Source: Candidatus Bathyarchaeota archaeon
Lineage (GTDB): Archaea > Thermoproteota > Bathyarchaeia > 40CM-2-53-6 > RBG-13-38-9
Assembly: GCA_963807605.1 (NCBI GenBank)
Contig: CAWECG010000004.1
Coordinates: 416,001-480,000 of the forward strand
DNA length: 64,000 bases
Direction of reading: 5' to 3'
Shown here: piece after piece, positions 4,058 to 62,623 of the stretch
How the letters are laid out: every line of letters begins with the position of its first letter
Position numbering within the stretch: position 1 is the stretch's first letter
The notes under the pieces: model-generated
What the model was told of the DNA's origin: nothing
Seen by the model: the letters and a program-made list of their open reading frames with translations, nothing else
Database searches by the model: none
Position numbers and translations under genes: made by a program

Positions 4058-4537
4058 ATGGGTTCTAGCTTGAGTCACAAGGAAGACTCGGAACAGGAAG
4101 TAATCGTTTTCGATTCTGAAAGGTGTACGGGTTGCTCTTACTGTATGATCGCCTGCAGCTTCAAACATTATGGGATGACGGATTTTGAGAAATCACACAT
4201 CAAGATCATTGATGGCCCACAGAGACCAAAGATACGATTTGTGGGGATTCATTGCATACACTGCGATGATCCTCTATGTCTCGCATCGTGCCCTGTAGGA
4301 GCTGTAACCAAAGATAACAACACCGGTCTAGTCAAGATCAATTCCACTATCTGCATTGGCTGTAAAGCCTGTTTAATCGCATGTCCAATCTCAAACCCAA
4401 GCTTCGACGAAGAGAGGCGCGTAGCGGTCAAATGCGACTTCTGTGACGGAGATCCGCAGTGTGTCAAGTTCTGCACGTCAGAGGCACTCACAAGAAGCAG
4501 CAGGGAGAACGCTCGCAAAAGATTCGCGCAGTGTTGA
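4058..4537 (+). CDS. 4x[4Fe-4S] ferredoxin-like electron-transfer protein (HycB/DmsB-like)
   Basis: CxxCxxCxxxC clusters: CTGCSYCMIAC, CIHCDDPLCLASCP, CIGCKACLIACP, KCDFC..PQCVKFC. Confidence 0.9.
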   Translation: MGSSLSHKEDSEQEVIVFDSERCTGCSYCMIACSFKHYGMTDFEKSHIKIIDGPQRPKIRFVGIHCIHCDDPLCLASCPVGAVTKDNNTGLVKINSTICIGCKACLIACPISNPSFDEERRVAVKCDFCDGDPQCVKFCTSEALTRSSRENARKRFAQC

Positions 4538-4553
4538 GGATGGGTCAACCATA

Positions 4554-4835
4554 ATGTCTGAGGAAGAAAATTTGATCTATCCCCTAAGGAAAAAGGCGAG
4601 GAGTTCGGTCCCCGCCTCATTCCAAGGTGCTGTCACAAATCTCATCAACCAAGGGCAAATCCAGAGTCTCCTAGACTTCTGGATTGATGAGAGGACAGGG
4701 CTCGGTCTTCCCGAGAAACCAGTCTCGGCCTACTCCTCAGAGAAAGCGGTTCAACAGAGTCAAGATATCATCAAGGAGTTGGGATTCGACCGTAGCCTAC
4801 ACTTTGATTGGAAGCAGAAGAGGCTGAAGACATGA
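4554..4835 (+). CDS. Small protein resembling the C-terminal tail of HdrC, without Fe-S motifs
   Basis: ERTGLGLPEKP...KAVQQSQDIIKELGFDRSLHFDW resembles the methanogen HdrC C-terminus; no Cys; ATGA overlap with the hdrB-like gene. Confidence 0.55.
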   Translation: MSEEENLIYPLRKKARSSVPASFQGAVTNLINQGQIQSLLDFWIDERTGLGLPEKPVSAYSSEKAVQQSQDIIKELGFDRSLHFDWKQKRLKT

Positions 4836-5716
4836 TGAGACGGTCGACATACCGATCGAAGACGATGATGTTCTGGGGTTGTATGATCCCAACCGTTCAG
4901 CCATTTGTGGAGAAGGCTGCACGATTCTCGCTCGAGAGGCTTGGTGTGACATTCCAGGAAATGCCAGATGCGACATGTTGTCCGGATCCAGAGATCTCAA
5001 GAACACTCGGAGGTGACTTGTGGCTGACGTTGGCAGGTCGTAACATATCAATAGCCAATCAGGCCGGTGGGGATATCTGTGTAATCTGCAATGGATGCTT
5101 CGACACCCTGAGCAAAGCAAACTCCGAGCTGAACGTAGACAAGGCTCTGAGTCGGAAAGTCAACGCGACGCTCACAAAGTACGGGGCAAGACACGACGGT
5201 TCAAGCCGAATATTTCACATGATTGAGTACCTCCACGACATAGTCGGCCTCGAAGCCATCCAAGAGAAGGTCATCAGATCTCTCTCAGGCCTCAATTGCG
5301 CCCCCCAGTACGGCTGCCGCATACTAAGAGAGAAGCTGGACTTACGTGCAAAGTTTGACGACCTTATCACAGTTCTCGGAGGGCGACTGATCCATACGGA
5401 GACAGAGAGGCTTTGTTGCGGAGTGCCAGCGATGTATGCCAATCCTGACTTTTCACTCCACCAAAGAGCCAAGGTAAAACTTGAAGAGATCAAAGAATCG
5501 AAAGCAGACTGCGTAACCCTCTTCTGTCCAGCATGCGCCGAGAGGCTCGAAAGAGCCCAGATGACACTCAGAAATGATGGATACAACTTCGACATCCCCG
5601 TGGTAAATTACCTGGAGCTGCTTGCACTATGCTTGGGAGCCTCATCTTCAGAAATCGGTACACATCTTCACAGAATATCACTTGACCCAATCGTGGGGAG
5701 GATCCTGAAGACCTAA
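4832..5716 (+). CDS. hdrB: Heterodisulfide reductase subunit B-like protein (two CCG domains)
   Basis: FWGCMIP, TCCPDP, ICNGC, YGC, LCCG, CPAC motifs. Confidence 0.85.
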   Translation: MMRRSTYRSKTMMFWGCMIPTVQPFVEKAARFSLERLGVTFQEMPDATCCPDPEISRTLGGDLWLTLAGRNISIANQAGGDICVICNGCFDTLSKANSELNVDKALSRKVNATLTKYGARHDGSSRIFHMIEYLHDIVGLEAIQEKVIRSLSGLNCAPQYGCRILREKLDLRAKFDDLITVLGGRLIHTETERLCCGVPAMYANPDFSLHQRAKVKLEEIKESKADCVTLFCPACAERLERAQMTLRNDGYNFDIPVVNYLELLALCLGASSSEIGTHLHRISLDPIVGRILKT

Positions 5717-6063
5717 TGAAAATCAGGAGACTCCCTCTAGGCCTCTCGCTTACACTACTTACAGGGGGATCCCTAGGAATCGGGATTGCGCGAACAACGA
5801 TCGAGGTCTTCCTTTGCTCTGAACTGGTCACAATATCCGTTTTTTACATCTTCTTCACAGTCATAATCCCAGCAATACGGCCTTCAAGCGTCGATACGGA
5901 AGCCATCTTTCTCGGAGGACTAGCGAGATCGCCTTACCTTTCAGGATCTGAACTCTTTTCGCCTGGAATACCTGTCATCTCAGAAGACATTGATGATTCT
6001 TGGGAGAATTACTTCGATAGAAACAGACTTGAGCCAAATGAGGAGTCTAAGGAAGAAGCTTGA
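5716..6063 (+). CDS. Small membrane protein, probable hydrogenase-associated subunit
   Basis: Two hydrophobic helices; start/stop overlaps on both sides. Confidence 0.6.
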   Translation: MKIRRLPLGLSLTLLTGGSLGIGIARTTIEVFLCSELVTISVFYIFFTVIIPAIRPSSVDTEAIFLGGLARSPYLSGSELFSPGIPVISEDIDDSWENYFDRNRLEPNEESKEEA

Positions 6064-7604
6064 CAATCGCAGCCCTAGCCCCACCCATAATCCTCACATT
6101 CTCGGCAGTAGCATCAACCGTAATCGGACGCAGATCCATTGCTCGTAGAAATGTCGTAATCGCTTTTTCATTTGTGTCTGCCGTTCTCGTGAATACTTAC
6201 TTTCTTATCCTCTCGCTGAATGGAGGCTTCGGATACGCCAAAATCGGCGAATTTACCGTAAACGCTGCTTCAATCTTCATCTCTGAGCTTGTCCTGGTCC
6301 TAGCTTTTCTAGGAGCCCTTTACAGCTTCAGCTACATTGAGGAGAGATCTGAGACTTGGGCTTACTATCTCCTCTATCAACTCTTCACTGCAATGATGAT
6401 AGCGATGGTCTCAAGCTTCAATGTTCTAGTCATGTATGTCTTCTTGGAGGGAAGCAGCGTAACAAGTGCGATACTTGTGATGTTCAGCAGAAGAAGAAGC
6501 AGCATCCTAGCCGCTTACCGATACCTTGTGCTCAGCATCTTCGGCGGCATCATAATCATAGGAGGAATCTTCTGGCAGTACCAGCTGACTCACACTCTAA
6601 ACTTAGCTGGTCTGGCCAGCCTAGCCAAAACAGATGTGAACTTTCTGGCGACCATTTACCTGCTAGGGTTCGGCGTAAAGGCCGGACTGCTACCCTTCGG
6701 CCTGTTCTGGCTCCCACCGGCGCATAGCGAGGCACCTATCCCCATACATACCCTGTTGAGTGCCGCCCTTGTCCAGGTCGCTGCCTTCGATATAGCGCGA
6801 GTCTTAGGCGGCGTGGGCATTGGAAACATGTACATCTCCAATATGCTCCTAGCAACGGGCCTTGCAAGCATGATCGTCGGCGCACTATACGCACTCATCG
6901 AGGCGTGGTATGGAAGCAAATACACCAGACTTCACGTGGGTCTCCGGCACATTCGTGGAATTAAGAGAGTCTGGGCGTTCTCAACCATCTCGGAAATGGG
7001 TTACATAACCTTGTTTCTGGGATTGGCTGGACTCCTTGCGAACCAGAAAGCGGGGTATGAAGAGGCACTGGTCCTTGGATTTGGTGGTGCTCTCCTCCAC
7101 ATGTACAATCACGGATTCTCAAAAGCTCAACTTCTTTTCGATTCAGGTGTAATGATAAAAGTTAGCCACGCCGAGGATCTCAACCTCATGGGGGCCCTTG
7201 CAAAACGACTCCCCATCATGAAGGTATCTTTCGTAATTGGAGCTCTTAGCCTCGGACTGATCCCCGCCACGTTTGGTGTGAGAACACTCAGAGAACTAGT
7301 TTTCAACAACAACATTCCAAGCCTAGCAAAACTCGTAGTCATAGCCACAGCAGGACTCTCCCTTATTGCATGCCTTTCAGTCTGGTATTGCTGCTTCTTC
7401 TCTAGGTCTAACATCCAATCTGACGATCGCCCCAAGGTCCCGAGAACCATGTACCTGCCCGGCCTCCTAATGGGAGGCCTGATAATTCTTGTCGGAAGTT
7501 ACTTCACGTTAGAATGGGCTGGCTTAATATCATCGGGTTCAAGCCTTACTGATACCCTACGGATTCTCGCCGAGACAACGATTAAGAGTAGCGCGGGGTC
7601 CTAG
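6060..7604 (+). CDS. Antiporter-like membrane subunit (MrpD/NuoL-N/EchA/HyfB family)
   Basis: ~14 TM helices; MYVFLE, GFGVKAG, WLPPAHSEAP.PIH.LLS, AFSTISEMG, NHGFSKA. Confidence 0.9.
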   Translation: MTIAALAPPIILTFSAVASTVIGRRSIARRNVVIAFSFVSAVLVNTYFLILSLNGGFGYAKIGEFTVNAASIFISELVLVLAFLGALYSFSYIEERSETWAYYLLYQLFTAMMIAMVSSFNVLVMYVFLEGSSVTSAILVMFSRRRSSILAAYRYLVLSIFGGIIIIGGIFWQYQLTHTLNLAGLASLAKTDVNFLATIYLLGFGVKAGLLPFGLFWLPPAHSEAPIPIHTLLSAALVQVAAFDIARVLGGVGIGNMYISNMLLATGLASMIVGALYALIEAWYGSKYTRLHVGLRHIRGIKRVWAFSTISEMGYITLFLGLAGLLANQKAGYEEALVLGFGGALLHMYNHGFSKAQLLFDSGVMIKVSHAEDLNLMGALAKRLPIMKVSFVIGALSLGLIPATFGVRTLRELVFNNNIPSLAKLVVIATAGLSLIACLSVWYCCFFSRSNIQSDDRPKVPRTMYLPGLLMGGLIILVGSYFTLEWAGLISSGSSLTDTLRILAETTIKSSAGS

Positions 7605-7605
7605 C

Positions 7606-9282
7606 ATGGAACGTTCTGAAGAGATACTTACCGGACTCAAGCAAAGACTCGGTGCAGACTTCATCTCGGAATCAAGAAGCGCCCCGAACACCTTCTGGAT
7701 TCACATCCAAAGAGGAAGAGTGAGGGAAGTAGCTAGCTATCTTACCAATGAGATCCATGGAAGGCTAAGTCACATCTCAACGATCGACAAGGGCTTGGAT
7801 GGCTACGAGGTCGTATATCATTACGCCCTAGACCACCTTGAAAAATTCCTACACCTGAACCTCAAAGTCCAGCTTCCCATAGACGAAGCTGAAATCGAAT
7901 CCGTCTCCCGGGAAGCTCCGGAGTCGTCCTGGTCGGAGCGAGAGATGATGGAGTTTACTCCAGTACAGTTCAAAGGCCATCCGGATCCCAGGCATCTCTG
8001 GCTACCCTACGAGTGGCCAAACGCTGTTGAGAGTGAAAAGTGTGAACATTTCATCGACAAGGTCGGCGACCCGTCACCGTTAGGAAATTCATCTAGGAAT
8101 GCTGAGGCTACGCTAATACCTCTTGGCCCCTATCATCCTCTGCTCATAGAAGGCGCATACTTCCGAGTGAAAGTTGATGGTGAAGAAATAACAGACGTGG
8201 ATGTGAAATTGGGGTGGAATCACCGAGGAATAATGAAACTCTTTGAGGGGCGCAGCTACACAAGAGGTGTCTTTCTGGCAGAACGGATCTGCGGCATATG
8301 TAATGTTACCCACACCACGGCATATCTGAATGCAGTCGAATCTCTGAGTGGGGCAGAGATCCCTCCTCGCGCACGCTATATTCGAACATTGATGGCTGAA
8401 CTTGAGAGAATTCACAGTCACCTCCTTTGGTTGGGAGTTGCTGGAGACCTGATTGGGTTCAGGACGCTCTTCATGCTCTCTTGGAAGGTGAGAGAACAGG
8501 TACTGGACATTTTCGAGTTGTTGACTGGAAGCAGAAGAGCTCCTGCAATGAACCTTATCGGTGGAGTAAGGAAAGATGTGACTGGCGAAACCTCCACCAA
8601 GATAGAAACGCGTCTTCGTAGCGTAAAGAAGGAAGCGGAGAAACTAATCGAAATAGTCTACAACCACTCGGTTGCGAGAAAGAGGCTTCAAGACATTGGA
8701 AAACTAGATCTTGACACGGCAAGGAAAACCGGAGTTGTAGGACCCACTGCGCGAGCCAGTGGATGGAAACTCGATACTCGCTTGTCAAGCCCCTACGCAG
8801 CATACGCGGCTGAATACACAACATGGGATGTCGTGACCGATGACGGAGGGGATGTCTGGGCTAGGACAGTCGTTCGACTAAAGGAGATTATCGTCTCGAT
8901 CAGCATAATTCTACAATGCCTTGAGGGGCTGGACCGCGTAAGCGGAGGAATACTGAGTGAGCCTGTCGATCCTAAAGACTTCAAACTGACTGAGGCCATC
9001 GGAAAGGCTGAGGCGCCAAGAGGCGAACTTTTCTACTATATCGTGTCAGACGGAACAAACATACCCCATAGCGTACGAATAAGAACCCCGAGCTTCAGAA
9101 ATATCTCGATAGTGCCAAGACTTCTGAAAGGACACACGGTTGCAGACGCACCAATAATCGTGGGAAGCATAGACCCTTGTTACTCTTGCACAGACCGCGT
9201 AGTAATTGTGAAAGACTCACCATCAGACTCTTCAAACAAATTTCTGCCTGACACGAATCGGAAGGGAGTGAAATGGCCGTAG
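7606..9282 (+). CDS. Group 4 [NiFe]-hydrogenase large subunit, fused NuoC/NuoD-like (HycE type)
   Basis: Ni-binding L1 ERICGIC and L2 DPCYSCTDR intact; N-terminal 30-kDa domain (EREMMEF..FKGHPDPR); EAPRGE; C-terminal extension after L2. Confidence 0.92.
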   Translation: MERSEEILTGLKQRLGADFISESRSAPNTFWIHIQRGRVREVASYLTNEIHGRLSHISTIDKGLDGYEVVYHYALDHLEKFLHLNLKVQLPIDEAEIESVSREAPESSWSEREMMEFTPVQFKGHPDPRHLWLPYEWPNAVESEKCEHFIDKVGDPSPLGNSSRNAEATLIPLGPYHPLLIEGAYFRVKVDGEEITDVDVKLGWNHRGIMKLFEGRSYTRGVFLAERICGICNVTHTTAYLNAVESLSGAEIPPRARYIRTLMAELERIHSHLLWLGVAGDLIGFRTLFMLSWKVREQVLDIFELLTGSRRAPAMNLIGGVRKDVTGETSTKIETRLRSVKKEAEKLIEIVYNHSVARKRLQDIGKLDLDTARKTGVVGPTARASGWKLDTRLSSPYAAYAAEYTTWDVVTDDGGDVWARTVVRLKEIIVSISIILQCLEGLDRVSGGILSEPVDPKDFKLTEAIGKAEAPRGELFYYIVSDGTNIPHSVRIRTPSFRNISIVPRLLKGHTVADAPIIVGSIDPCYSCTDRVVIVKDSPSDSSNKFLPDTNRKGVKWP

Positions 9283-10286
9283 GAAACCTGTTCGCGATGA
9301 CTTCTTTAGCGGGCATTATACTTGTGCCTCTCGCAAGCTTCTTCCTGGGCGTAATCTATAGCTATGAGATACGGAAGATCTCGGCCCGACTCCAATCGAG
9401 GAGTGGCCCGTGGCTTCTTGTTCCCAAGTCTCTCAGACATGCTCTCGGCACAACTAGGATTTTCCAGCCTCTCTTTGACATCCTCAAGCTGCTCTACAAG
9501 GAATCTCTGGTTCCTCACACCGCCAAGACCAGACTCTTTCGATTAGCACCCTACACTGGTCTGATCTGTTTGGTCGCCGCCGCCACTCTGATACCCTTTG
9601 CCGGCTACTCGCCCTTTGCCTCTTTCGAACTCAGCCTTGTCGCTGTTTTGTATCTCCTTCTAGGCGTCCCCTTCGCATCCATACTGGGCGGTGCTGCGAG
9701 CTCCTCACCTTGGGGAGTGCTGGGAAGTCAGAGGGAGGCAGAGCTGATGCTGGCATGTGAGACACCCCTTGCTATCGGAGCATTTACCGCCGCAGTAATG
9801 GCTAACACTCTATCAATACAGAAGATCCTCAGCGTACAGATATCCTGGTACCCCTTCCTGATTCTGAACCCATTTGCAGCGGCCGCCTTCCTACTCGCAA
9901 TCGTCGGCAAACTCCATCTCAAACCATTCGACATGCCTGAGGCCGAAGTTGAGATCGTGGCAGGACCGACAACGGAGTACAGTGGAAGTCTGCTTGGAAT
10001 CATTGAGATAGGTAAGGTTCTTCTGATCTCAGTCATCGTAACTCTCTTCATCGACCTGTTCTTGGCAGGCGGATTCATACTAGGGCTTGAATATCCCCTG
10101 AGGACTCTCGCATTCGTTATCGAAGGCATTGTGATCATTTCCTTGATCGCTCTCATACACACGCTGAACCCTCGGTTCAGGATCGATCAGGCCTTAGCAT
10201 GGTATGTGAAGGGCCCCACAGTTCTAGCTGCAGTAGGACTAGCTTGGGCCTACGTCCTACGATACTTATACCCAGCCATCCTGTGA
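9273..10286 (+). CDS. NuoH/HycD/EchB-like membrane subunit
   Basis: RKISARLQSRSGP, QPLFDILKLL.KE, PFDMPEAEVEIVAGP.TEYSG, PRFRIDQ. Confidence 0.92.
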   Translation: MAVGNLFAMTSLAGIILVPLASFFLGVIYSYEIRKISARLQSRSGPWLLVPKSLRHALGTTRIFQPLFDILKLLYKESLVPHTAKTRLFRLAPYTGLICLVAAATLIPFAGYSPFASFELSLVAVLYLLLGVPFASILGGAASSSPWGVLGSQREAELMLACETPLAIGAFTAAVMANTLSIQKILSVQISWYPFLILNPFAAAAFLLAIVGKLHLKPFDMPEAEVEIVAGPTTEYSGSLLGIIEIGKVLLISVIVTLFIDLFLAGGFILGLEYPLRTLAFVIEGIVIISLIALIHTLNPRFRIDQALAWYVKGPTVLAAVGLAWAYVLRYLYPAIL

Positions 10287-10296
10287 GGTTGCAACG

Positions 10297-10875
10297 GTGA
10301 AATCGGGCTTAACCAAGCTTACCAGAGTACTCATCGGGAACGTCTTTCGCCCCGTTACTGTGGACTACCCAGTGAAAAGTCAACAAGTCGGAGATGTTAC
10401 CATTAACCAAGAGGAGGCTAGAGGGAAACATAGCTTCGATGACGAAAAGTGCATCGGGTGCGGAGCCTGTACCGTCGTATGTTCCAGTGGCGCAATCACA
10501 GAATCAGATGTGCAATTTGAGAGGAGCCTAAAGGTAGAGCTCGGTCGGTGCATATTCTGCGGGAGATGTCGCGACATCTGTCCTGAGAAAGGACTTGAAT
10601 TGACACCTCAATTTGAACTCTCCCAGACCGGAAAGGGTGCAGAAGATTCAATAAAAGTTGAACATACGATCCAGCTTGGAAAATGCGAAAGCTGCGGTCG
10701 AGCAACCTTTCCAATGAAACAGATAGACACGGTCGTCAAGAGAGCTCTTGAGAAGATAGATCTAGCGAACAAGATAACTGCCGGCAGGGACATGGAAGTC
10801 TACGTGAGATATTGCTCTGACTGTCGAAGAACCCAGAGTTACCTCCTGAATATTCACCCACGCAAATCGTACTAG
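10297..10875 (+). CDS. NuoI/HycF-like 2x[4Fe-4S] subunit
   Basis: CIGCGACTVVC and CIFCGRCRDICP plus C-terminal CxxC...CxxC. Confidence 0.9.
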   Translation: MKSGLTKLTRVLIGNVFRPVTVDYPVKSQQVGDVTINQEEARGKHSFDDEKCIGCGACTVVCSSGAITESDVQFERSLKVELGRCIFCGRCRDICPEKGLELTPQFELSQTGKGAEDSIKVEHTIQLGKCESCGRATFPMKQIDTVVKRALEKIDLANKITAGRDMEVYVRYCSDCRRTQSYLLNIHPRKSY

Positions 10876-10890
10876 ACCCACGGTGAGATT

Positions 10891-11340
10891 GTGAGGCTCG
10901 ATCTGAAAGGTAAGGTACGTTCATATTCACCTTGGATCTTCCACGCCCATGCTGGTGGCTGCAACAATTGCGATATCGAGCTGGCTGCATGTTTTGCTCC
11001 GCGCTTCGACCTCGAGAGGATGGGTGTTCAACTTAGAAACAACCCTCGCCACGCAGACATATTTCTGGTAACGGGACCCGCGCCAAAGCAGATCGCCCCA
11101 ATTCTACAGCGGATATACAGTCAAGTACCTAACCCGAAGGTCACGATCGCGTGCGGATCTTGCGCCATCACTGGCGGGATATACAACCGCGACGACGGAA
11201 AAGCAAACTACGCACTTGGCGGTCCAATAGAGAAACTCATTCCCGTCGATGTCTTGATTCCCGGATGCCCACCAAGACCAGAATCTATAATAGAAGGCCT
11301 CATGTTAGCTTTGGAAAAGCTTAGGAAGAAGACGACTTGA
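10891..11340 (+). CDS. Group 4 hydrogenase small subunit (NuoB/HycG/EchC-like)
   Basis: GGCNNCDIE, PRHAD, GSCA, PVDV.IPGCPPRP. Confidence 0.92.
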   Translation: MRLDLKGKVRSYSPWIFHAHAGGCNNCDIELAACFAPRFDLERMGVQLRNNPRHADIFLVTGPAPKQIAPILQRIYSQVPNPKVTIACGSCAITGGIYNRDDGKANYALGGPIEKLIPVDVLIPGCPPRPESIIEGLMLALEKLRKKTT

Positions 11341-11365
11341 GATTCCTAGGCAGGTGATTTTTTAA

Positions 11366-11800
11366 TTGGTCAAAGTTGATGAATTCGACTTACCAGACGA
11401 ACTGTACTACCTCGAAGAGGGAAGAAGCTGGGCAAAGGTCGAGCCTGATGGTAACGTGCGGGTCGGACTCTCTGACATAGCCATCAAGATGGCAGCGGAT
11501 ATAATCTACATACGCCTCAAGCCAAAGGGTGCAGTCGTCGAGCGGGGTAAAGGCTTCGGAACAATGGAAAGCTCAAAATGGGTTGGACCTCTCAAATCAC
11601 CAGTATCAGGAACAATAATCAGCGTCAATGAAGTGCTAACCAAGAATCCAAGCGTGATGGTGAAAGACTCGTATGGCGGAGGGTGGACCGTGATCATCCA
11701 ACCGACAAACCTAGAGAATGACATAAAGGGTCTTCTTCATACGCCCGAACAACTCACCGCATGGGCGACAAAGGAAAAGGCGAACCTTCAGAAAAAATAG
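11366..11800 (+). CDS. Lipoyl-carrier protein (GcvH family, LbpA-like)
   Basis: VRVGLSD, MESSKWVGPLKSPVSG (lipoyl Lys), DSYGGGW. Confidence 0.88.
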   Translation: MVKVDEFDLPDELYYLEEGRSWAKVEPDGNVRVGLSDIAIKMAADIIYIRLKPKGAVVERGKGFGTMESSKWVGPLKSPVSGTIISVNEVLTKNPSVMVKDSYGGGWTVIIQPTNLENDIKGLLHTPEQLTAWATKEKANLQKK

Positions 11801-11861
11801 AGCAATGCCGATGAAACGGTAAGCAACTTCATCAACAATAGATTCTTGCCGGACATCTAAG

Positions 11862-13244
11862 ATGAATAAGGAACAAGTAGACGAGCTCGCCTCGATTGTC
11901 GGGCCGCAGAACGTATCCACCGAGATTCTTGAATTAGAGGTCTATTCACGCGACCCTACGGTCGTCAGGGGAATAGCGGAGGCCGTAGTCTGGCCCATAG
12001 ACGCTGAACAAATAAGTAAGGTCATGGCATTTGCCAACAAGACCAAGATTCCTATCTACCCAAGAGGGGCGGGAAGCAGCCTCTGTGGCGGCCCAGTCCC
12101 TCTGGAACGTGGAATCGTTCTCTCCCTCGAGAGGATGAATAAGATCCTTGAGATAGACGTTGAGAACCTCCAATTTCTAGCCGAGGCGGGCGCGAGCATC
12201 CGGGAGATAAACGACGCACTCAAACCCCTCAATCTGTTCATTCCGCCCGACCCTGCCAGTGAGGTAGCATGCACGATAGGAGGATGCGTCGCAAATAATG
12301 CCGGTGGCATCCATGCGGTGAAATATGGCACCTTTAAGGACTGGGTTCTAGGCGTTGAGCTGGTCTTACCCACTGGGGAGATAGTCTCGACAGGAACAAA
12401 GACGAGGAAGAGCGTCTCTGGGTATGATCTGACGGGCCTAATAACGGGTTCCGAGGGGACTCTGGCAGTCATAACCAAGGTCCGGGCAAGAGTTGTAGCA
12501 GTTCCGGAGAGTCGAATGGTAACCACCGCATACTTCAACACTGCCGAAGATGCCGGCAGAGCATCGTTCAAGATAATGGTCAGAGGCCTCAATCCCTCTG
12601 CAATCGAACTCCTTGACAAGACTACTATGCAGACAATCTCACAGTACCTGACGATGAAGTTGCCACCAGCTGGTGCAATGCTCATCTTGGAATTTGATGG
12701 CCCCCGAGGTGACGTCGATTACCGAATGGGTGTGGCAGAGAACATCTGCAAAGAGGAGGGGGTGATAGAAGTCAAGGTCTCTGCTACAGAGGACGAGAGC
12801 TTAAGCCTTTGGAGTGCTAGGAAAACCGCCTTTCAGTCTCTGGCTGTCCTAGGCAAGACATCAATCCTGATAGAAGACATCACGGTGCCTATCAGCAGAG
12901 TCCCTGAGATGCTCCGCCACATACATGAGATAGCTGAGAAATACGCAATATTAGTCCCAACATTCGGTCATGTTGGAGATGGGAATCTCCATCCCCACGT
13001 ACTCTACGACGAAGAGAACCGAGATGAGTACGACAAGGCCATGGCGGCCACGGACGAGATCTTCAAGACGGCCGTGGAACTTGATGGGACTATATCAGGT
13101 GAACATGGAATAGGCGTACTCAAGAAAAAGTTCTTTCCCCTCGAACACGATTCAATAGAGACAGCCGTAATGAAGAGGATCAAAAAGCTCTTCGATCCCA
13201 ACAATATCCTAAATCCACATAAAATCTTCCCAGAAGAGGAGTGA
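11862..13244 (+). CDS. glcD: FAD-linked 2-hydroxyacid dehydrogenase (GlcD/Dld family)
   Basis: PRGAGSSLCGG, PPDPAS, GSEGTL, GHVGDGNLHP, SGEHGIG, FDPNNILNP. Confidence 0.9.
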   Translation: MNKEQVDELASIVGPQNVSTEILELEVYSRDPTVVRGIAEAVVWPIDAEQISKVMAFANKTKIPIYPRGAGSSLCGGPVPLERGIVLSLERMNKILEIDVENLQFLAEAGASIREINDALKPLNLFIPPDPASEVACTIGGCVANNAGGIHAVKYGTFKDWVLGVELVLPTGEIVSTGTKTRKSVSGYDLTGLITGSEGTLAVITKVRARVVAVPESRMVTTAYFNTAEDAGRASFKIMVRGLNPSAIELLDKTTMQTISQYLTMKLPPAGAMLILEFDGPRGDVDYRMGVAENICKEEGVIEVKVSATEDESLSLWSARKTAFQSLAVLGKTSILIEDITVPISRVPEMLRHIHEIAEKYAILVPTFGHVGDGNLHPHVLYDEENRDEYDKAMAATDEIFKTAVELDGTISGEHGIGVLKKKFFPLEHDSIETAVMKRIKKLFDPNNILNPHKIFPEEE

Positions 13245-13247
13245 CCC

Positions 13248-14402
13248 TTGAACTTCAGGCCGACTCTTGGCAAAGAATTGAGCTACGAACTGAACAAGTG
13301 CTTCAGATGCGGTTTCTGCAGAAGCCAGTGTCCCATCTACCAATCGAAGCAGAATGAGACATGGAATGCACGAGGAAGAATGATGACCGTCCAGCTTATG
13401 AGAGAGGGAAAGTTGGGACTGGATGAAAAAGTGCTTGACCGGATCTACACATGCGCCCTATGCAAAGCATGTGAGAAGATTTGCCCCGGACTGGTAAAAG
13501 TCACAGATATCGTTAGAGAAGTCAGACGCCAACTTGTTGAGATCAATAGCGGGCCTCTTCCTGAACACCTTAAGATGTCGGAGAACATCGCTTCCACAAA
13601 GAACATCTTGGCTATGAAATCGAGAACTCCCGAACTCCAAGGAGCTATTGACAGGCTGCCCAAGACGGCCGACACAATCGTATTCATGGGATGCGTAGCC
13701 CAATACGTCTATCCCAAGCACCTGACCGCACTCTTCAAGATACTAGAAAAAACAAAGACAGAATTCACAGTCCTAAATGACGAACTCTGCTGCGGAAGCT
13801 TCCTAGCCGAACTCGGCCTGACGAAGGAAGCAAAGAATGTTCTGACGGAGACAGCCAACTCGCTTAGAGAGTGGGATGTTAAGAGAATAGTCACCCTATG
13901 TCCAATGTGCTACAACACGTTCAAGAATGACCTTCCCAAGCTGGAGATCACACCAGCCATCAAGGTCCAACACTCGACACAACTACTGGAGGAAGCCCTC
14001 ACAAAAGGAACCCTCAAGCTCTCATCGCCGGTGAAGATGAAGCTGGCTTACAAAGATCCATGCCACCTTGGAAGATACGCCGAAGTCTACGATACGCCTA
14101 GGAACATACTCAAAATGATCGACGGGGTAGAACTCGTCGAGTTAGATCGGACCAAAGAATTTGCGAGATGCTGCGGAGGAACCATAAGAATTCCCTACTC
14201 CGAATTACGGAATGATCTGTGCAAGAACTTCTTCGATGAGGTCTTGAAGTCTAAGGTTGAGGGTGTCGTTACATCATGCCCCTCCTGCTTCCACAACCTC
14301 TACTCAACAGCACCTTACGAGATAAAAGGCATATTCGACATCCACGAGATTCTTGCTCACGCACTCGGCACACTTGAGAAGATCCCATCTTACGAGTATT
14401 AG
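13248..14402 (+). CDS. Fe-S oxidoreductase, GlcF/HdrD family (2x[4Fe-4S] plus two CCG domains)
   Basis: CFRCGFCRSQCP, CALCKACEKICP, LCCG, CPMC, DPCHLGR, RCCGG, SCPSC. Confidence 0.88.
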   Translation: MNFRPTLGKELSYELNKCFRCGFCRSQCPIYQSKQNETWNARGRMMTVQLMREGKLGLDEKVLDRIYTCALCKACEKICPGLVKVTDIVREVRRQLVEINSGPLPEHLKMSENIASTKNILAMKSRTPELQGAIDRLPKTADTIVFMGCVAQYVYPKHLTALFKILEKTKTEFTVLNDELCCGSFLAELGLTKEAKNVLTETANSLREWDVKRIVTLCPMCYNTFKNDLPKLEITPAIKVQHSTQLLEEALTKGTLKLSSPVKMKLAYKDPCHLGRYAEVYDTPRNILKMIDGVELVELDRTKEFARCCGGTIRIPYSELRNDLCKNFFDEVLKSKVEGVVTSCPSCFHNLYSTAPYEIKGIFDIHEILAHALGTLEKIPSYEY

Positions 14403-41524: not shown

Positions 41525-43252
41525 TCACGCCATGAAGTACCTTTGGGCCAAGGCTAGCTCTTTCGCCGGTTCTACTGTAGCAATCTCTCCGTCAAGTCTT
41601 ACCTCGTAGGTTTCAGGGTCTACTGTTATCTTGGGAGTACTATCGTTCCACACCATGTTCTTCTTGCCTATGTTCCGGCAGTTCTTTACTGGCAATATGA
41701 CCTTTTCGAGTCCTAACTTTTGAGGCACTCCAAGCTCTGCGGCTGCTTTTGATATGAATGTGAAGCTAGTTTTCTTTACTGCCCGACCGAGTGCACCGAA
41801 CATTGGTCTGTAGTAAACCGGCTCCGGAGTTGGTAGGGACGCATTCGGATCTCCCATTATAGACCAAGCTATGAATCCTCCCTTGAAGATCATCTTTGGT
41901 TTCGCTGCAAAGAAGGGCGCCTGATACATTACTATATCTGCGTACTTACCGACTTCAAGGGAGCCGAGATATTCTGCAACACCATGAGTGATTGCTGGGT
42001 TTATTGTTGTCTTTGCGATGTACCGCTTAGCTCTAAAGTTGTCGTTCTCCGGGGAGTCTTCCTTCAGCTTGCCGGTCATCTTTTTCATCTTGTCCGCAGT
42101 CTGCCAGCAACGGATTACTACCTCCCCAATCCTACCCATAGCTTGACTGTCTGCGGAGTACATGCTCAAGACACCTTTATCATGCAGAACATCCTCTGCA
42201 GCGATTGTTTCGGCTCTGATTCTGGATTCTGCAAAGGCGACATCCTCTGATACCGCAGGATTCAGGTGATGACAGAACATCAACATGTCCAGATGCTCAT
42301 CCACTGTATTGACAGTATAAGGTCTTGTCGGGTTTGTTGAAGAAGGAAGTACGTTTGGCTCTCCTGCTATCTTCATAATATCGGGCGCGTGACCTCCGCC
42401 AGCTCCCTCTGTGTGGTAGGTGTGTATTGTTCTACCGTCGATCGCATTTATCGTGTCCTCGACGTAACCGCATTCGTTAATCGAGTCGGTGTGTATCGCC
42501 ACTTGTGTATCCGTGAGGTCCGCTGCTCTAAGCGAAGCGTCTATAACTGCGGCGGTTGTCCCCCAATCCTCATGGTCTTTAAGACCGCATGCTCCAGCCT
42601 CTATCTGTTCCAGCTGAGTGGCGAGTGTTGGGTGTGAGTCGTTGCCTTTGCCCAGGAAGCCCCAGTTCATCGGTGTATCCTCTACAGCTTCCAACATTCT
42701 ATGCATGTTAAAGACGCCAGGAGTACATGTAGTAGCGTTGGTACCGTCTGCAGGCCCGGTTCCTCCACCGATCATATTGCATATTCCATTACTTATCGCG
42801 TCGACGTATTGCTGTGGGCTTATCATGTGAACGTGTGTATCAAAATGACCTGGAGTGCAGATTGTATGTTCCCCGGCGGTGGCTTCCGTACATGCCGAGA
42901 CTACCATGTGAGGATCAACGCCATCCATTACATTGGGATTGCCGCCTTTTCCAATCCCTGCTATTTTGCCGTCTTTTATCCCGATATCGGCCTTCAGGAT
43001 TCCCAGGATAGGATCTAGTATGATGGAATTGGTGATTATGAAATCCAAAGCCCCATTCGCATTTGTAACTCCTGGCGTTTGGCCTAGTCCATCTCTTATT
43101 GTCTTGCCTCCACCGAAGACCTCCTCGTCTCCGTGGGTTATCAGATCTTTCTCTATCTCGATGAGTAGGTCTGTGTCACCTAGTCTTACTTTATCTCCGG
43201 TTGTGGGCCCATAAAGATCACTGTACTGTTTTCTTGTTAGTTTCAAAACCAT
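41525..43252 (-). CDS. ureC: Urease alpha subunit
   Basis: [39 protein letters not shown]. Confidence 0.97.
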
Positions 43253-60206: not shown

Positions 60207-61256
60207 GTGGAACAAGACATCTGCAAGATGCGGACATGGCGAGGGTTATTGGGAGAAGATCTTTACAGGCTCCTGCGTCCCAAATTTGAATTACCGTATA
60301 CCCAATACCCTGGCAAGGTAAATGAAGTCCGAATTGGCAATATTCCCCCTACTGGGACAAGGAATTACACCATAACTCTTGGCGGGAGCAGAGATCTCCC
60401 GTTCTTCAGCGATCCAACAAGAGTAGTTGAGAGACCTAGGCTTGCTATGCGGGTTCAGACCTCACCAGCCGATATTCCAGCGACGGTATTGATGGCGCTG
60501 GGTGACCGAGCAAATCATCCAGTTGCATGGGCAAGATTCTGTATCGAGGAGTGCGGCGCTGAAATAATCGAGATTAAGTTCAGTCTGCCGGACAGGACTC
60601 TGAGCAATGAGTCTCTCAAGGAGTATGCGAACCTCTCACAACAACTCGTGAATGAATTTGATGTGCCCCTCATTTTTTCAGGCCCAGATGTTAAAGAGGC
60701 AGACCACCTGATCCTAGAGGCTGTTGCCAACGCAGTCAAGGGAGAACGAGTATTGCTGGCATCGGCACGACCAGAGAACGACTATACTAGAATAGCCAAA
60801 GCAGCAATTGACAATCAGCATCTGATTCTTGCACACACTGACTGCGATCCGCCATCACAAAAGATGCTAAATGACAGATTGTTGAATCTCGGCCTTTCCC
60901 ACGACCAGATTGTCATCGATCCTACAACCGCTGCTCTCGGTTACGGCCTCGAATACTCGCTCTCAATAACTGAACAGATCAGGTTGAATGCACTGAAAGG
61001 TGACCAGAGCCTTCAGATGCCAATAGCCGCATTCCCACTCAACAGCTGGACAGCTAGGGAGGCGAATTTTGAAGATGCACGGTATGGCGACCTTCAGTCA
61101 AGAGGGATCATCTGGGAGCTTACGACATCTCTTGCGATGTTCCTTGCAGGCGCTGAACTTCTCGTGCTGCTGCACCCGGAATCAGTTAGACGATTTAAAC
61201 TCATGACTAAAGAAGTCGGATTGGCTGAGCCCCGGGACATTGGAAAGGGAGCTTGA
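60207..61256 (+). CDS. cdhD: Corrinoid Fe-S protein small subunit
   Basis: VIDPTTAALGYGLEYS, IRL.AL.GD..LQMP, W.ARE, WE, LHP. Confidence 0.88.
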   Translation: MEQDICKMRTWRGLLGEDLYRLLRPKFELPYTQYPGKVNEVRIGNIPPTGTRNYTITLGGSRDLPFFSDPTRVVERPRLAMRVQTSPADIPATVLMALGDRANHPVAWARFCIEECGAEIIEIKFSLPDRTLSNESLKEYANLSQQLVNEFDVPLIFSGPDVKEADHLILEAVANAVKGERVLLASARPENDYTRIAKAAIDNQHLILAHTDCDPPSQKMLNDRLLNLGLSHDQIVIDPTTAALGYGLEYSLSITEQIRLNALKGDQSLQMPIAAFPLNSWTAREANFEDARYGDLQSRGIIWELTTSLAMFLAGAELLVLLHPESVRRFKLMTKEVGLAEPRDIGKGA

Positions 61257-61264
61257 GCTCATAG

Positions 61265-62623
61265 ATGCCTCAAAAACCCTCTCTGCTTAGCCTTTACGGA
61301 AACTTGCCAAAGAAGAACTGTAATGAGTGTGGCTTTCCTACTTGCATGGCTTTTGCCGCCGCGATACTTGAAGGAAAGGTCAGGCTTGCGGACTGCCCCT
61401 ACATCTCAGAGGAGGAGAAGACGCTAATAGAGGGTTTGATTGCGGCTCCGGTTGCTAAGCTCGTATTCGGCAAGAGAAAACCGCTGGCAATTGGTGACGC
61501 GAGGGTAATGCATCGTCACGAACTCAAGTTTTACAATCCTACAGCTATCGCAGTCGAGTTATCTGATTCTTACAATGAGACCAAACTGGAAACTGCCATC
61601 AAGAAGGCCCTTGATGTTAAAGTGGAGAGGCTAGGCGAGACCTACAGCATCGACGCATTCGCGATTAGATCAGATTCTGGAGATGCCCAATCATTCGCTG
61701 AGGCTACAAGTCAGATAATCAAGACCATAGACCACCCACTCATATTGAATTGCTGGGACCCCACAATCCTTGAGGCGGGACTTGAAGCCTGTGGCGACGA
61801 AATCCCCCTCATCTTTGCGGCGACGAAAGAGACTCTTGAATCGTACGTAGACCTTGCAAAGGGTCATGACGCCCCGCTTGTGGTTGCCAATGAAGACCTA
61901 GGTGAAATCAGGCTAATGGCAAAGAGGGCTTCAGACAGTGGTTTGAAGGTCGCATTGTACCCTATCACCATGTCGTTCCAGGAGACGCTGAAAAGCTGTA
62001 TCACGATAAGGAGGGGAGCTATCGAAAACAAAATTCAGGAGTTCGGGCATCCACTCATCGGAGTTCCAGCCTCACTAACGGGAAAAATTGACTCCTCCAA
62101 AGAGCTCTGGTGGCGCGAGTCTCTGGTCGCTTCGGCTCTGGTTTTCAGATATTCTGACGCACTAATCATCAAGCAAGCGGAGATCGAAACGCTCCTCCCA
62201 GTAATTACTCTCCGCCAAGGAGTCTTCTCCGATCCTAAGGTTCCTGCAAAAGTCAAACCAGGACTCTACAGATGCGGCTCACCTAATAGAAGCTCACCAG
62301 TCCTGCTCACAGTCAACTATGCCCTAACCTACTATTTAGTCACCGCAGACATAGACAAGGCCGGAATACACTGCCACCTGCTTGTGGTCGACACTGGAGG
62401 TATGTCCGTGCTGAACGCTCTAGCCGGCGGACAACTCAAACCAGAGACGGTGTCGGAAGTGATCAAACAGACAGGACTGGAATCGACAGTAAGTCACAAG
62501 AAGCTGATCATACCCGGCTTAGCTGCTAGGCTTCGCAGCGAGATAGAGGACCTAAGTGGCTGGGAGGTCCTCGCGGGACCCGTTGAGTCCAGAGACATAC
62601 CTCTCTTCCTCCAAAAAAAATAG
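61265..62623 (+). CDS. cdhE: Corrinoid Fe-S protein large subunit
   Basis: LPKKNCNECGFPTCMAFA..CP, HRHE, SPVLLT.NYALTY, GP.ESRDIP. Confidence 0.9.
   Translation: MPQKPSLLSLYGNLPKKNCNECGFPTCMAFAAAILEGKVRLADCPYISEEEKTLIEGLIAAPVAKLVFGKRKPLAIGDARVMHRHELKFYNPTAIAVELSDSYNETKLETAIKKALDVKVERLGETYSIDAFAIRSDSGDAQSFAEATSQIIKTIDHPLILNCWDPTILEAGLEACGDEIPLIFAATKETLESYVDLAKGHDAPLVVANEDLGEIRLMAKRASDSGLKVALYPITMSFQETLKSCITIRRGAIENKIQEFGHPLIGVPASLTGKIDSSKELWWRESLVASALVFRYSDALIIKQAEIETLLPVITLRQGVFSDPKVPAKVKPGLYRCGSPNRSSPVLLTVNYALTYYLVTADIDKAGIHCHLLVVDTGGMSVLNALAGGQLKPETVSEVIKQTGLESTVSHKKLIIPGLAARLRSEIEDLSGWEVLAGPVESRDIPLFLQKK

Follow-up and report, generated by a model that had tools for sequence, protein, structure and literature searches.

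We analyzed a 64,000-nucleotide window from a member of the Bathyarchaeia (Candidatus Bathyarchaeota archaeon; assembly GCA_963807605.1, contig CAWECG010000004.1, positions 416,001 to 480,000) and found that an operon at positions 4058-14402 joins genes for HdrB and a membrane-bound [NiFe] hydrogenase to genes for a lipoyl carrier protein, a GlcD-type dehydrogenase subunit, and an HdrD-like protein (gene 12). We consider it probable that the hydrogenase passes electrons to HdrB, that HdrB reduces the lipoyl carrier and not the heterodisulfide of coenzyme M (CoM) and coenzyme B (CoB), and that the carrier delivers the electrons to gene 12 and GlcD for an H2-driven reduction of a 2-oxoacid, probably coupled to ion movement. 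The HdrC-like tail would anchor HdrB to the nine-gene hydrogenase, which is of the Ehd/Ehe type, and the disulfide presented to HdrB would be the lipoyl arm predicted on Lys71 of the carrier, in place of CoM-S-S-CoB. The carrier would then act as a two-electron shuttle linking HdrB with the CCG sites of gene 12, with which we infer a contact, and gene 12 would be wired to the flavin adenine dinucleotide (FAD) site of GlcD. Electrons would preferentially run from H2 through lipoamide to a 2-oxoacid such as pyruvate and form the 2-hydroxyacid; the hydrogenase step would move no more than about one ion.

The hydrogenase core belongs to the Ehd/Ehe/Drh family

The locus is a real, conserved member of the Ehd/Ehe/Drh family that is neither Ehe nor Ehd proper. 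In a quick tree with Shimodaira-Hasegawa-like approximate likelihood ratio test (SH-aLRT) support and no bootstrap, the large subunit fell inside the Ehd/Ehe/Drh clade (SH-aLRT 95-99) with sequences from Culexarchaeum, Methanosuratincola, Methanomethylicus, and Methanocella, apart from HycE and from the other group 4 enzymes of the host genome; the matches listed in a search for related loci were mostly Hyc/Hyf enzymes. The first nine genes correspond to the nine genes of the Methanosuratincola verstraetei Ehd locus (L191) and of the Culexarchaeum Ehe loci (L160), including hdrB, the hdrC-like gene, and the antiporter gene. The nine-gene core is also found in an Odinarchaeia locus (L231:6506-18760), in the same order as in the window; an LbpA-side carrier (see below) lies 3 kb upstream of it, and another hydrogenase follows immediately downstream. 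A Methanoregula metagenome-assembled genome (MAG) has the same core, antiporter included, downstream of acetyl-coenzyme A (acetyl-CoA) synthase genes (L051:5976-13100), and its large subunit forms a sister pair with that of Methanocella Drh.

The HdrC tail is a free protein here, but in many other members of the Bathyarchaeia the tail and the NuoC-like subunit form a single fused protein, and HdrB would therefore be a physical subunit of the hydrogenase. The only PDB entries matched by the tail profile were HdrC C termini (residues about 113-184, the C-terminal third; E 3e-9), and the tail is probably the arm that binds HdrB. Gene 1, which adjoins the tail and HdrB in every cluster mapped, presumably takes over the electron-wiring role of the Fe-S half of HdrC.

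A literature search found no biochemical paper on any Ehd/Ehe/Drh member. Kohtz et al. 2022 (PMC9723716) describe the Ehd/Ehe-type family; they report that the Ehe cluster includes a GcvH and propose that the lipoyl group of this protein serves as the disulfide of HdrB in Ehe. The preliminary description of the operon, made from the DNA alone, had likewise put lipoamide in the place of CoM-S-S-CoB, a proposal that we can support in part, but the arrangement matches complexes that were already described, although not biochemically characterized, both in the Ehd/Ehe/Drh core and in the idea put forward by Kohtz et al.

The Ehe of Culexarchaeia shares with the window the nine-gene core with its fused large subunit, the clade, and a GcvH-family gene in the cluster. 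However, Ehe has HdrA2B2C2 and TfrA/SdhAB-like genes, whereas the window has GlcD and an HdrD-like protein and no hdrA was found in the genome, and a 100/99 split sets the Ehe carrier, on the GcvH side, apart from the window carrier, on the LbpA side. Ehe proper is recognized by co-located SdhA, CdhA, and HdrA2B2C2, none of which is in the window cluster. The Ehd of Methanomethylicia and the Drh of Methanocellales share the nine genes (L191), the antiporter signature (Methanosuratincola), and the clade (Methanocella Drh), but they are proposed CoM-S-S-CoB reducers of methanogens, their loci lack a carrier or GlcD, and their HdrB keeps His154. Ehd proper belongs to hosts with Mcr and CoM/CoB. 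A methanogen-type Ehd was rejected here, as mcrA, comA, and ComE were not found in a genome that is 94% complete, and formate hydrogenlyase was rejected on the lack of fdh in the cluster and a clade that differs from that of HycE.

The carrier is distinct from GcvH, and competing systems were not found in the genome

In the carrier tree, the 100/99 split separates the window carrier, the LbpAs of the sHdr system, and other CCG-linked carriers from canonical GcvH. A grouping with true GcvH, named beforehand as an outcome that would count against the proposal, was thus not seen. The Ehe and Ehg carriers sit on the GcvH side. The carrier has Lys71, invariant in 46 alignment rows, an Arg50/Lys52 basic patch, and an isoelectric point (pI) of 6.6, raised as in LbpA. 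Carriers seem, from these sequences, to have joined HdrB-hydrogenases more than once; an approximately unbiased (AU) test rejected a single clade of hydrogenase-linked carriers (p 1e-4), although the group was named after the tree had been seen and a simpler model was used. True GcvH was rejected as an identity on the position in the tree, the pI, and the failure to find gcvP and gcvT.

The closest named protein matches of the host are from Bathyarchaeia. A search of the whole Bathyarchaeia genome found no mcrA, comA, ComE, hdrA, mvhD, gcvP, gcvT, sHdrA, DsrE, or LipS1/S2, and mcrA was likewise not found in five relatives. The genome does contain lipA, four lipoate ligases, hypABCDEF, and HycI, as well as a 2-oxoacid dehydrogenase operon with dihydrolipoyl dehydrogenase (Lpd), two other GcvH-family genes, both on the GcvH side, and tusA-like genes. 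Thus, it offers no visible basis for CoM/CoB chemistry and has the genes for lipoylation, and the absence of hdrA, gcvP, and gcvT first noticed in the window extends to the genome; the gcvL of that list has a counterpart outside the window in Lpd. One candidate dedicated ligase, a fused protein (C4:613711-614826), has close orthologs in 6 of 12 cluster-bearing genomes, one of which (G383) has it adjoining the carrier in an HdrB-hydrogenase cluster; none was found in the three genomes with an acidic carrier.

A related system is the sHdr-LbpA-sLpl(AB) system (Cao et al. 2018, PMC6067878; Kumpel et al. 2026, 10.64898/2026.10.01.755906), which likewise pairs a CCG protein with a lipoyl carrier that has a KWVGP-type motif, a basic surface, and a raised pI, and which has a counterpart of the fused ligase candidate. 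LbpA, however, carries cysteines at its N and C termini (some archaeal LbpAs lack them) and the window carrier has none, and the carrier here is linked with the hydrogenase and hydroxyacid dehydrogenase of an anaerobe, without sHdrA, DsrE, or LipS1/S2. On the failure to find these genes and on the two missing cysteines, sHdr sulfur oxidation was rejected. DsrK-DsrC (10.64898/2026.08.25.746951) is an earlier example of a CCG enzyme whose sulfur substrate is borne by a protein, although it involves one noncubane cluster, a trisulfide substrate, and a quinol donor.

A docking model places the carrier on HdrB and its tail

Multimer modeling of HdrB and the tail with the carrier, the check suggested in the preliminary description, gave a passing score of 0.76, against 0.00 for the best of 3 controls. 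Among solved complexes, 58 of 80 attained the passing mark, compared with 2 of 110 mismatched pairs; these counts are only a rough guide for a three-chain job. At least 94% of contacts agreed between runs, and the predicted local distance difference test value (pLDDT) of the partner was at least 88. The modeled interface includes the Lys71 hairpin of the carrier, Val22 of HdrB, five residues from a cluster ligand, and tail residues 38-45, and Arg50/Lys52 of the carrier face acidic residues of the tail. A sequence search found no solved complex of HdrB with a lipoyl protein. The model supports binding of the carrier to HdrB and the tail, but it does not show it. Across 14 lineages, a test for charge swapping between the tail and the carrier patch gave a rho of -0.46 (permutation p 0.05, with 8% of window pairs as extreme); moving the residue window by four, a choice made afterwards, gave -0.81, with G383 as an exception. 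The charge swap is suggestive only.

Energetics and the direction of electron flow

The potentials of H2 and pyruvate are -0.41 V and -0.19 V, respectively. Lipoamide (-0.29 V; PMC6067878) is nearly isopotential with CoM-S-S-CoB (-281 mV; PMC12054007), so the Ehd module would need no retuning. With textbook potentials and standard conditions, electron transfer from H2 to lipoamide yields -24 kJ/mol, and that from dihydrolipoamide to pyruvate yields -19 kJ/mol.

Several observations weigh against an ion-coupled, H2-driven reduction through the carrier. At 10 Pa H2, the step from H2 to lipoamide is near equilibrium, and pumping would therefore need a high local H2 concentration or a strongly oxidized carrier pool. 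Two of the usual central lysines are missing from the antiporter: it retains the Glu of transmembrane helix (TM) 5 and the Lys of TM7, has Gln for the Lys of TM8, and has no TM12 Lys, a pattern shared with Methanosuratincola Ehd. With these two lysines lost and the NuoK-like Glu of the small membrane subunit kept, ion pumping is uncertain. HdrB keeps all ten cluster cysteines but lacks His154 of methanogen HdrB, a proposed proton donor, which is Arg here and Arg or Lys in the other free-tail clusters of the clade. The substrate of GlcD cannot be read from sequence, and the LarA-family genes present in 12 of 12 genomes checked do not identify it. Finally, a second type of HdrB-hydrogenase in Bathyarchaeia, a Culexarchaeia Ehd-like cluster, and the clusters of G185 and G280 mostly lack a nearby carrier, and HdrB there may therefore use another disulfide.

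The main rival to H2-driven 2-oxoacid reduction is the same wiring run in reverse, in which oxidation of a 2-hydroxyacid (lactate) would reduce the carrier and the hydrogenase would evolve H2, driven by ion influx or by a partner that keeps H2 very low, as in a syntrophic fermentation. Many group 4 enzymes do evolve H2, and the transfer from dihydrolipoamide to H2 is downhill below about 10 Pa H2. The best solved relative of GlcD is the lactate-oxidizing LctD (7qh2), and HdrD/GlcD was earlier suggested as a lactate oxidizer (PMC10667645). However, reduction of lipoamide is uphill by about 19 kJ/mol with lactate and by about 39 kJ/mol with glycolate, there is no bifurcating flavoprotein in the operon, with hdrA not found, and the partner in Ehe is TfrA-like, for which fumarate reduction by thiols is the only downhill course. 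We regard the reversed direction as rather unlikely.

The acceptor module resembles the HdrD/GlcD of Bathyarchaeia, Methanomethylicia, and Korarchaeia and the thiol:fumarate reductase TfrAB in combining an FAD dehydrogenase with a two-CCG subunit. HdrD/GlcD was proposed to couple lactate to a disulfide, with other disulfides suggested for nonmethanogens (PMC10667645); the window differs in placing the pair in one operon with a hydrogenase and a named candidate disulfide. It is not GlcDEF of the Escherichia coli type: a separate glcE was not found in the genome, and gene 12, which scores as TfrB/HdrD-like, keeps both CxxC ends that are absent in E. coli GlcF.

Carriers recur beside HdrB-hydrogenases and CCG proteins

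Four other genomes of the family have the twelve genes in exactly this order, and the arrangement is therefore not due to chance. A lack of conservation, also named beforehand as an outcome that would count against the proposal, was thus not seen. An intact free tail was found in 15 of 301 Bathyarchaeia genomes, and a carrier was present in all 12 Bathyarchaeia clusters of the window type with enough contig, in six families and several gene orders; the genomes concerned are kin and not independent. By family, the partner of the carrier is GlcD with gene 12 in three (in shuffled order), a LutAB-type CCG lactate dehydrogenase in a fourth, and dihydrolipoyl dehydrogenase in a fifth. All 7 of the more distant carrier relatives looked up (outside Bathyarchaeia or sHdr, or sHdr LbpA) adjoin genes for CCG proteins (HdrB, HdrD-like, or LutAB). 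In a Sulfolobales MAG (L195:5283-10514), GlcD with a CCG protein and LutAB flank an LbpA-side carrier, with a CoA transferase and an aldehyde:ferredoxin oxidoreductase nearby and no hydrogenase found within 8 kb.

Such loci bear on the possibility that the operon consists of two loose modules, the carrier serving gene 12 and GlcD (or other CCG enzymes, or Lpd) while HdrB acts on some small disulfide or polysulfide or the complex works as a ferredoxin:H+ oxidoreductase through gene 1. The Sulfolobales locus has the carrier and its partners without a hydrogenase, many HdrB-hydrogenase clusters have no carrier, the largest gap in our operon precedes glcD, and an aldehyde:ferredoxin oxidoreductase adjoins the cluster in G022 and G027. 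Nevertheless, the carrier remains with the hydrogenase where GlcD is absent (G017, G372, G383, Ehe, and Ehg), the hydrogenase-adjacent carriers are not one clade, suggesting repeated recruitment, and the docking model passes, so that we consider two separate modules improbable. It is very improbable that the carrier is unrelated to electron flow from the hydrogenase and instead carries sulfane sulfur in the manner of LbpA or is an intermediate in lipoate synthesis or glycine metabolism: it falls on the LbpA side, close relatives adjoin DsrE/TusA genes, and the genome has tusA-like genes, but sHdrA, DsrE, LipS1/S2, gcvP, and gcvT were not found, both LbpA cysteines are missing, and two GcvH-side paralogs lie elsewhere in the genome.

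Lipoylation genes lie in clusters of other lineages, LipS2, LplA, and LplB in Nezhaarchaeota and LipS/LplB-like genes in Culexarchaeum. The Nezhaarchaeota Ehg clusters (L170:12601-17063, L172, L173) adjoin GcvH, a CoA-disulfide-reductase-like gene, and OsmC in addition to these lipoylation genes, neighbors that go unmentioned in the Ehg passage of Kohtz et al. (PMC9723716). Next to carrier/CCG clusters, OsmC-like genes recur (L036:15845-16285, L160:1332-1793, L170:15478-15927, L228:15491-15952), and none was found in the host genome. OsmC/Ohr proteins use lipoylated proteins as reductant. Other Bathyarchaeia families have a membrane-less variant (L167, L168, L176, L246, L247, L252-L255, L259, L260) consisting of an Fe-S protein, a NuoC-tail fusion, HdrB, a large subunit, and a fused NuoB/NuoI-like protein, without NuoH or antiporter; it is a candidate soluble H2:disulfide oxidoreductase, and in L246 a carrier and a ligase adjoin it.

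Gene content of the operon and other loci

The twelve genes (Table 1) are separated by gaps of -10 to +61 nt, the widest lying just before glcD, and each is free of internal stops. An RsmB-type methylase gene flanks the operon on one side and a convergent agmatinase gene on the other, and inspection by eye found no conserved promoter or terminator upstream of or between the genes.

Table 1. Genes of the operon at positions 4058-14402 of the window
Gene	Product	Position	Strand	Features
1	HycB/HydN-type (HycB/HydN/CooF) 4x[4Fe-4S] protein	4058..4537	+	159 aa, 16 Cys, PF13247
2	Cys-free HdrC C-terminal tail	4554..4835	+	93 aa, start ATG 4554
3	HdrB	4832..5716	+	294 aa, two CCG domains, 5+5 cysteines
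4	Small membrane subunit	5716..6063	+	115 aa, weakly NuoK-like (E 0.004; second search E 0.36)
5	Single Mrp/NuoLMN-type antiporter subunit	6060..7604	+	514 aa
6	Fused NuoC+NuoD-type [NiFe] large subunit	7606..9282	+	558 aa, C-terminal extension
7	NuoH/HycD-type membrane subunit	9273..10286	+	337 aa, PF00146
8	NuoI/HycF-type Fe-S subunit	10297..10875	+	192 aa
9	NuoB/HycG-type small subunit	10891..11340	+	149 aa, PF01058
10	Lipoyl carrier	11366..11800	+	144 aa, Lys71 in ESSKWVGP, no Cys, basic patch, LbpA side of tree
11	GlcD/LctD-type FAD 2-hydroxyacid dehydrogenase subunit	11862..13244	+	460 aa, TIGR00387 E 5e-137, below cut-off
12	HdrD/TfrB/GlcF-type protein	13248..14402	+	384 aa, 2x[4Fe-4S], two CCG domains, 5+5 cysteines

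Family scans upheld every assignment of the preliminary description, including the HdrC-like tail, HdrB, and a fused large subunit with both Ni-binding CxxC motifs (ERICGIC and DPCYSC), with some refinements. Gene 1 is an Fe-S protein as stated but not a long polyferredoxin, and of the two labels given to gene 12, the HdrD/TfrB type stands (TfrB 1e-49), GlcF scoring less well (4e-23). The start codon of hdrB (ATG 4832) overlaps the stop of the tail gene. The small membrane subunit had no significant match in the PDB; it has an invariant Glu36 in helix 2 and occurs in the Ehd, Ehe, and Methanoregula clusters as well. The metal-binding His/Glu motifs of GlcD are intact.

Elsewhere in the genome, a second glcD/glcF-like pair lies directly upstream of a serine hydroxymethyltransferase gene (L240:2056-6005, on C3), hinting at glycolate/glyoxylate use; it has the 5+5 cysteine pattern of gene 12, which is thus not specific to carrier partners. 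NarI-type and two-CCG HdrD-like genes accompany a group 1-like hydrogenase (L138/L140, C1:307119-314550), and the CCG enzyme of this locus could be another user of the carrier pool. A second HdrB-hydrogenase cluster (L047:6046-11506, C4:56045-61505) is of another clade and has neither antiporter nor carrier; its NuoC-tail fusion and large subunit are broken by frameshifts or stops (a pseudogene or an assembly error). The window also holds a CdhD-/CdhE-like corrinoid Fe-S protein pair (60207-62623), away from the main acs cluster (C4:379520-383480), a urease alpha subunit gene on the minus strand (41525-43252), and a 357-amino-acid open reading frame with no Pfam or NCBIfam match (711-1784).

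Significance

The nine-gene Ehd/Ehe/Drh core is already known, and Kohtz et al. 2022 (PMC9723716) had proposed, for Ehe, that a lipoylated GcvH supplies the disulfide of HdrB. What is new is an LbpA-side carrier separate from both true GcvH and the carrier of Ehe, a GlcD/HdrD-type partner, and a genome that has lipA and a candidate dedicated ligase but in which no competing systems were found. Which disulfide is used by Hdr enzymes without methanogenesis is a question raised in PMC9723716, PMC10667645, and 10.1101/2023.11.21.568159. The operon unites the donor side, a candidate disulfide, and the acceptor side, in a genome where searches yielded no Mcr, HdrA, Mvh, P or T protein of glycine cleavage, or sHdr. 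With its hydroxyacid module and LbpA-side carrier, the docking result, and the stripped genome, the locus is a good test case, and the small size of its soluble parts (HdrB with the tail, the carrier, the ligase, and GlcD with gene 12) would allow them to be tested directly.

We tentatively extend the proposal, as something possible rather than expected, to a self-contained respiratory chain that would conserve energy in Bathyarchaeia, made up of an ion-pumping H2:lipoyl-protein oxidoreductase and a dihydrolipoyl-protein:2-oxoacid reductase; a dedicated lipoyl protein would be a general stand-in for CoM-S-S-CoB, plugged by different lineages into lactate, fumarate, or NAD modules. If the proposal is true, lipoate would have a role in shuttling electrons in respiration, and a lineage abundant in sediments would gain a defined energy-conserving route.

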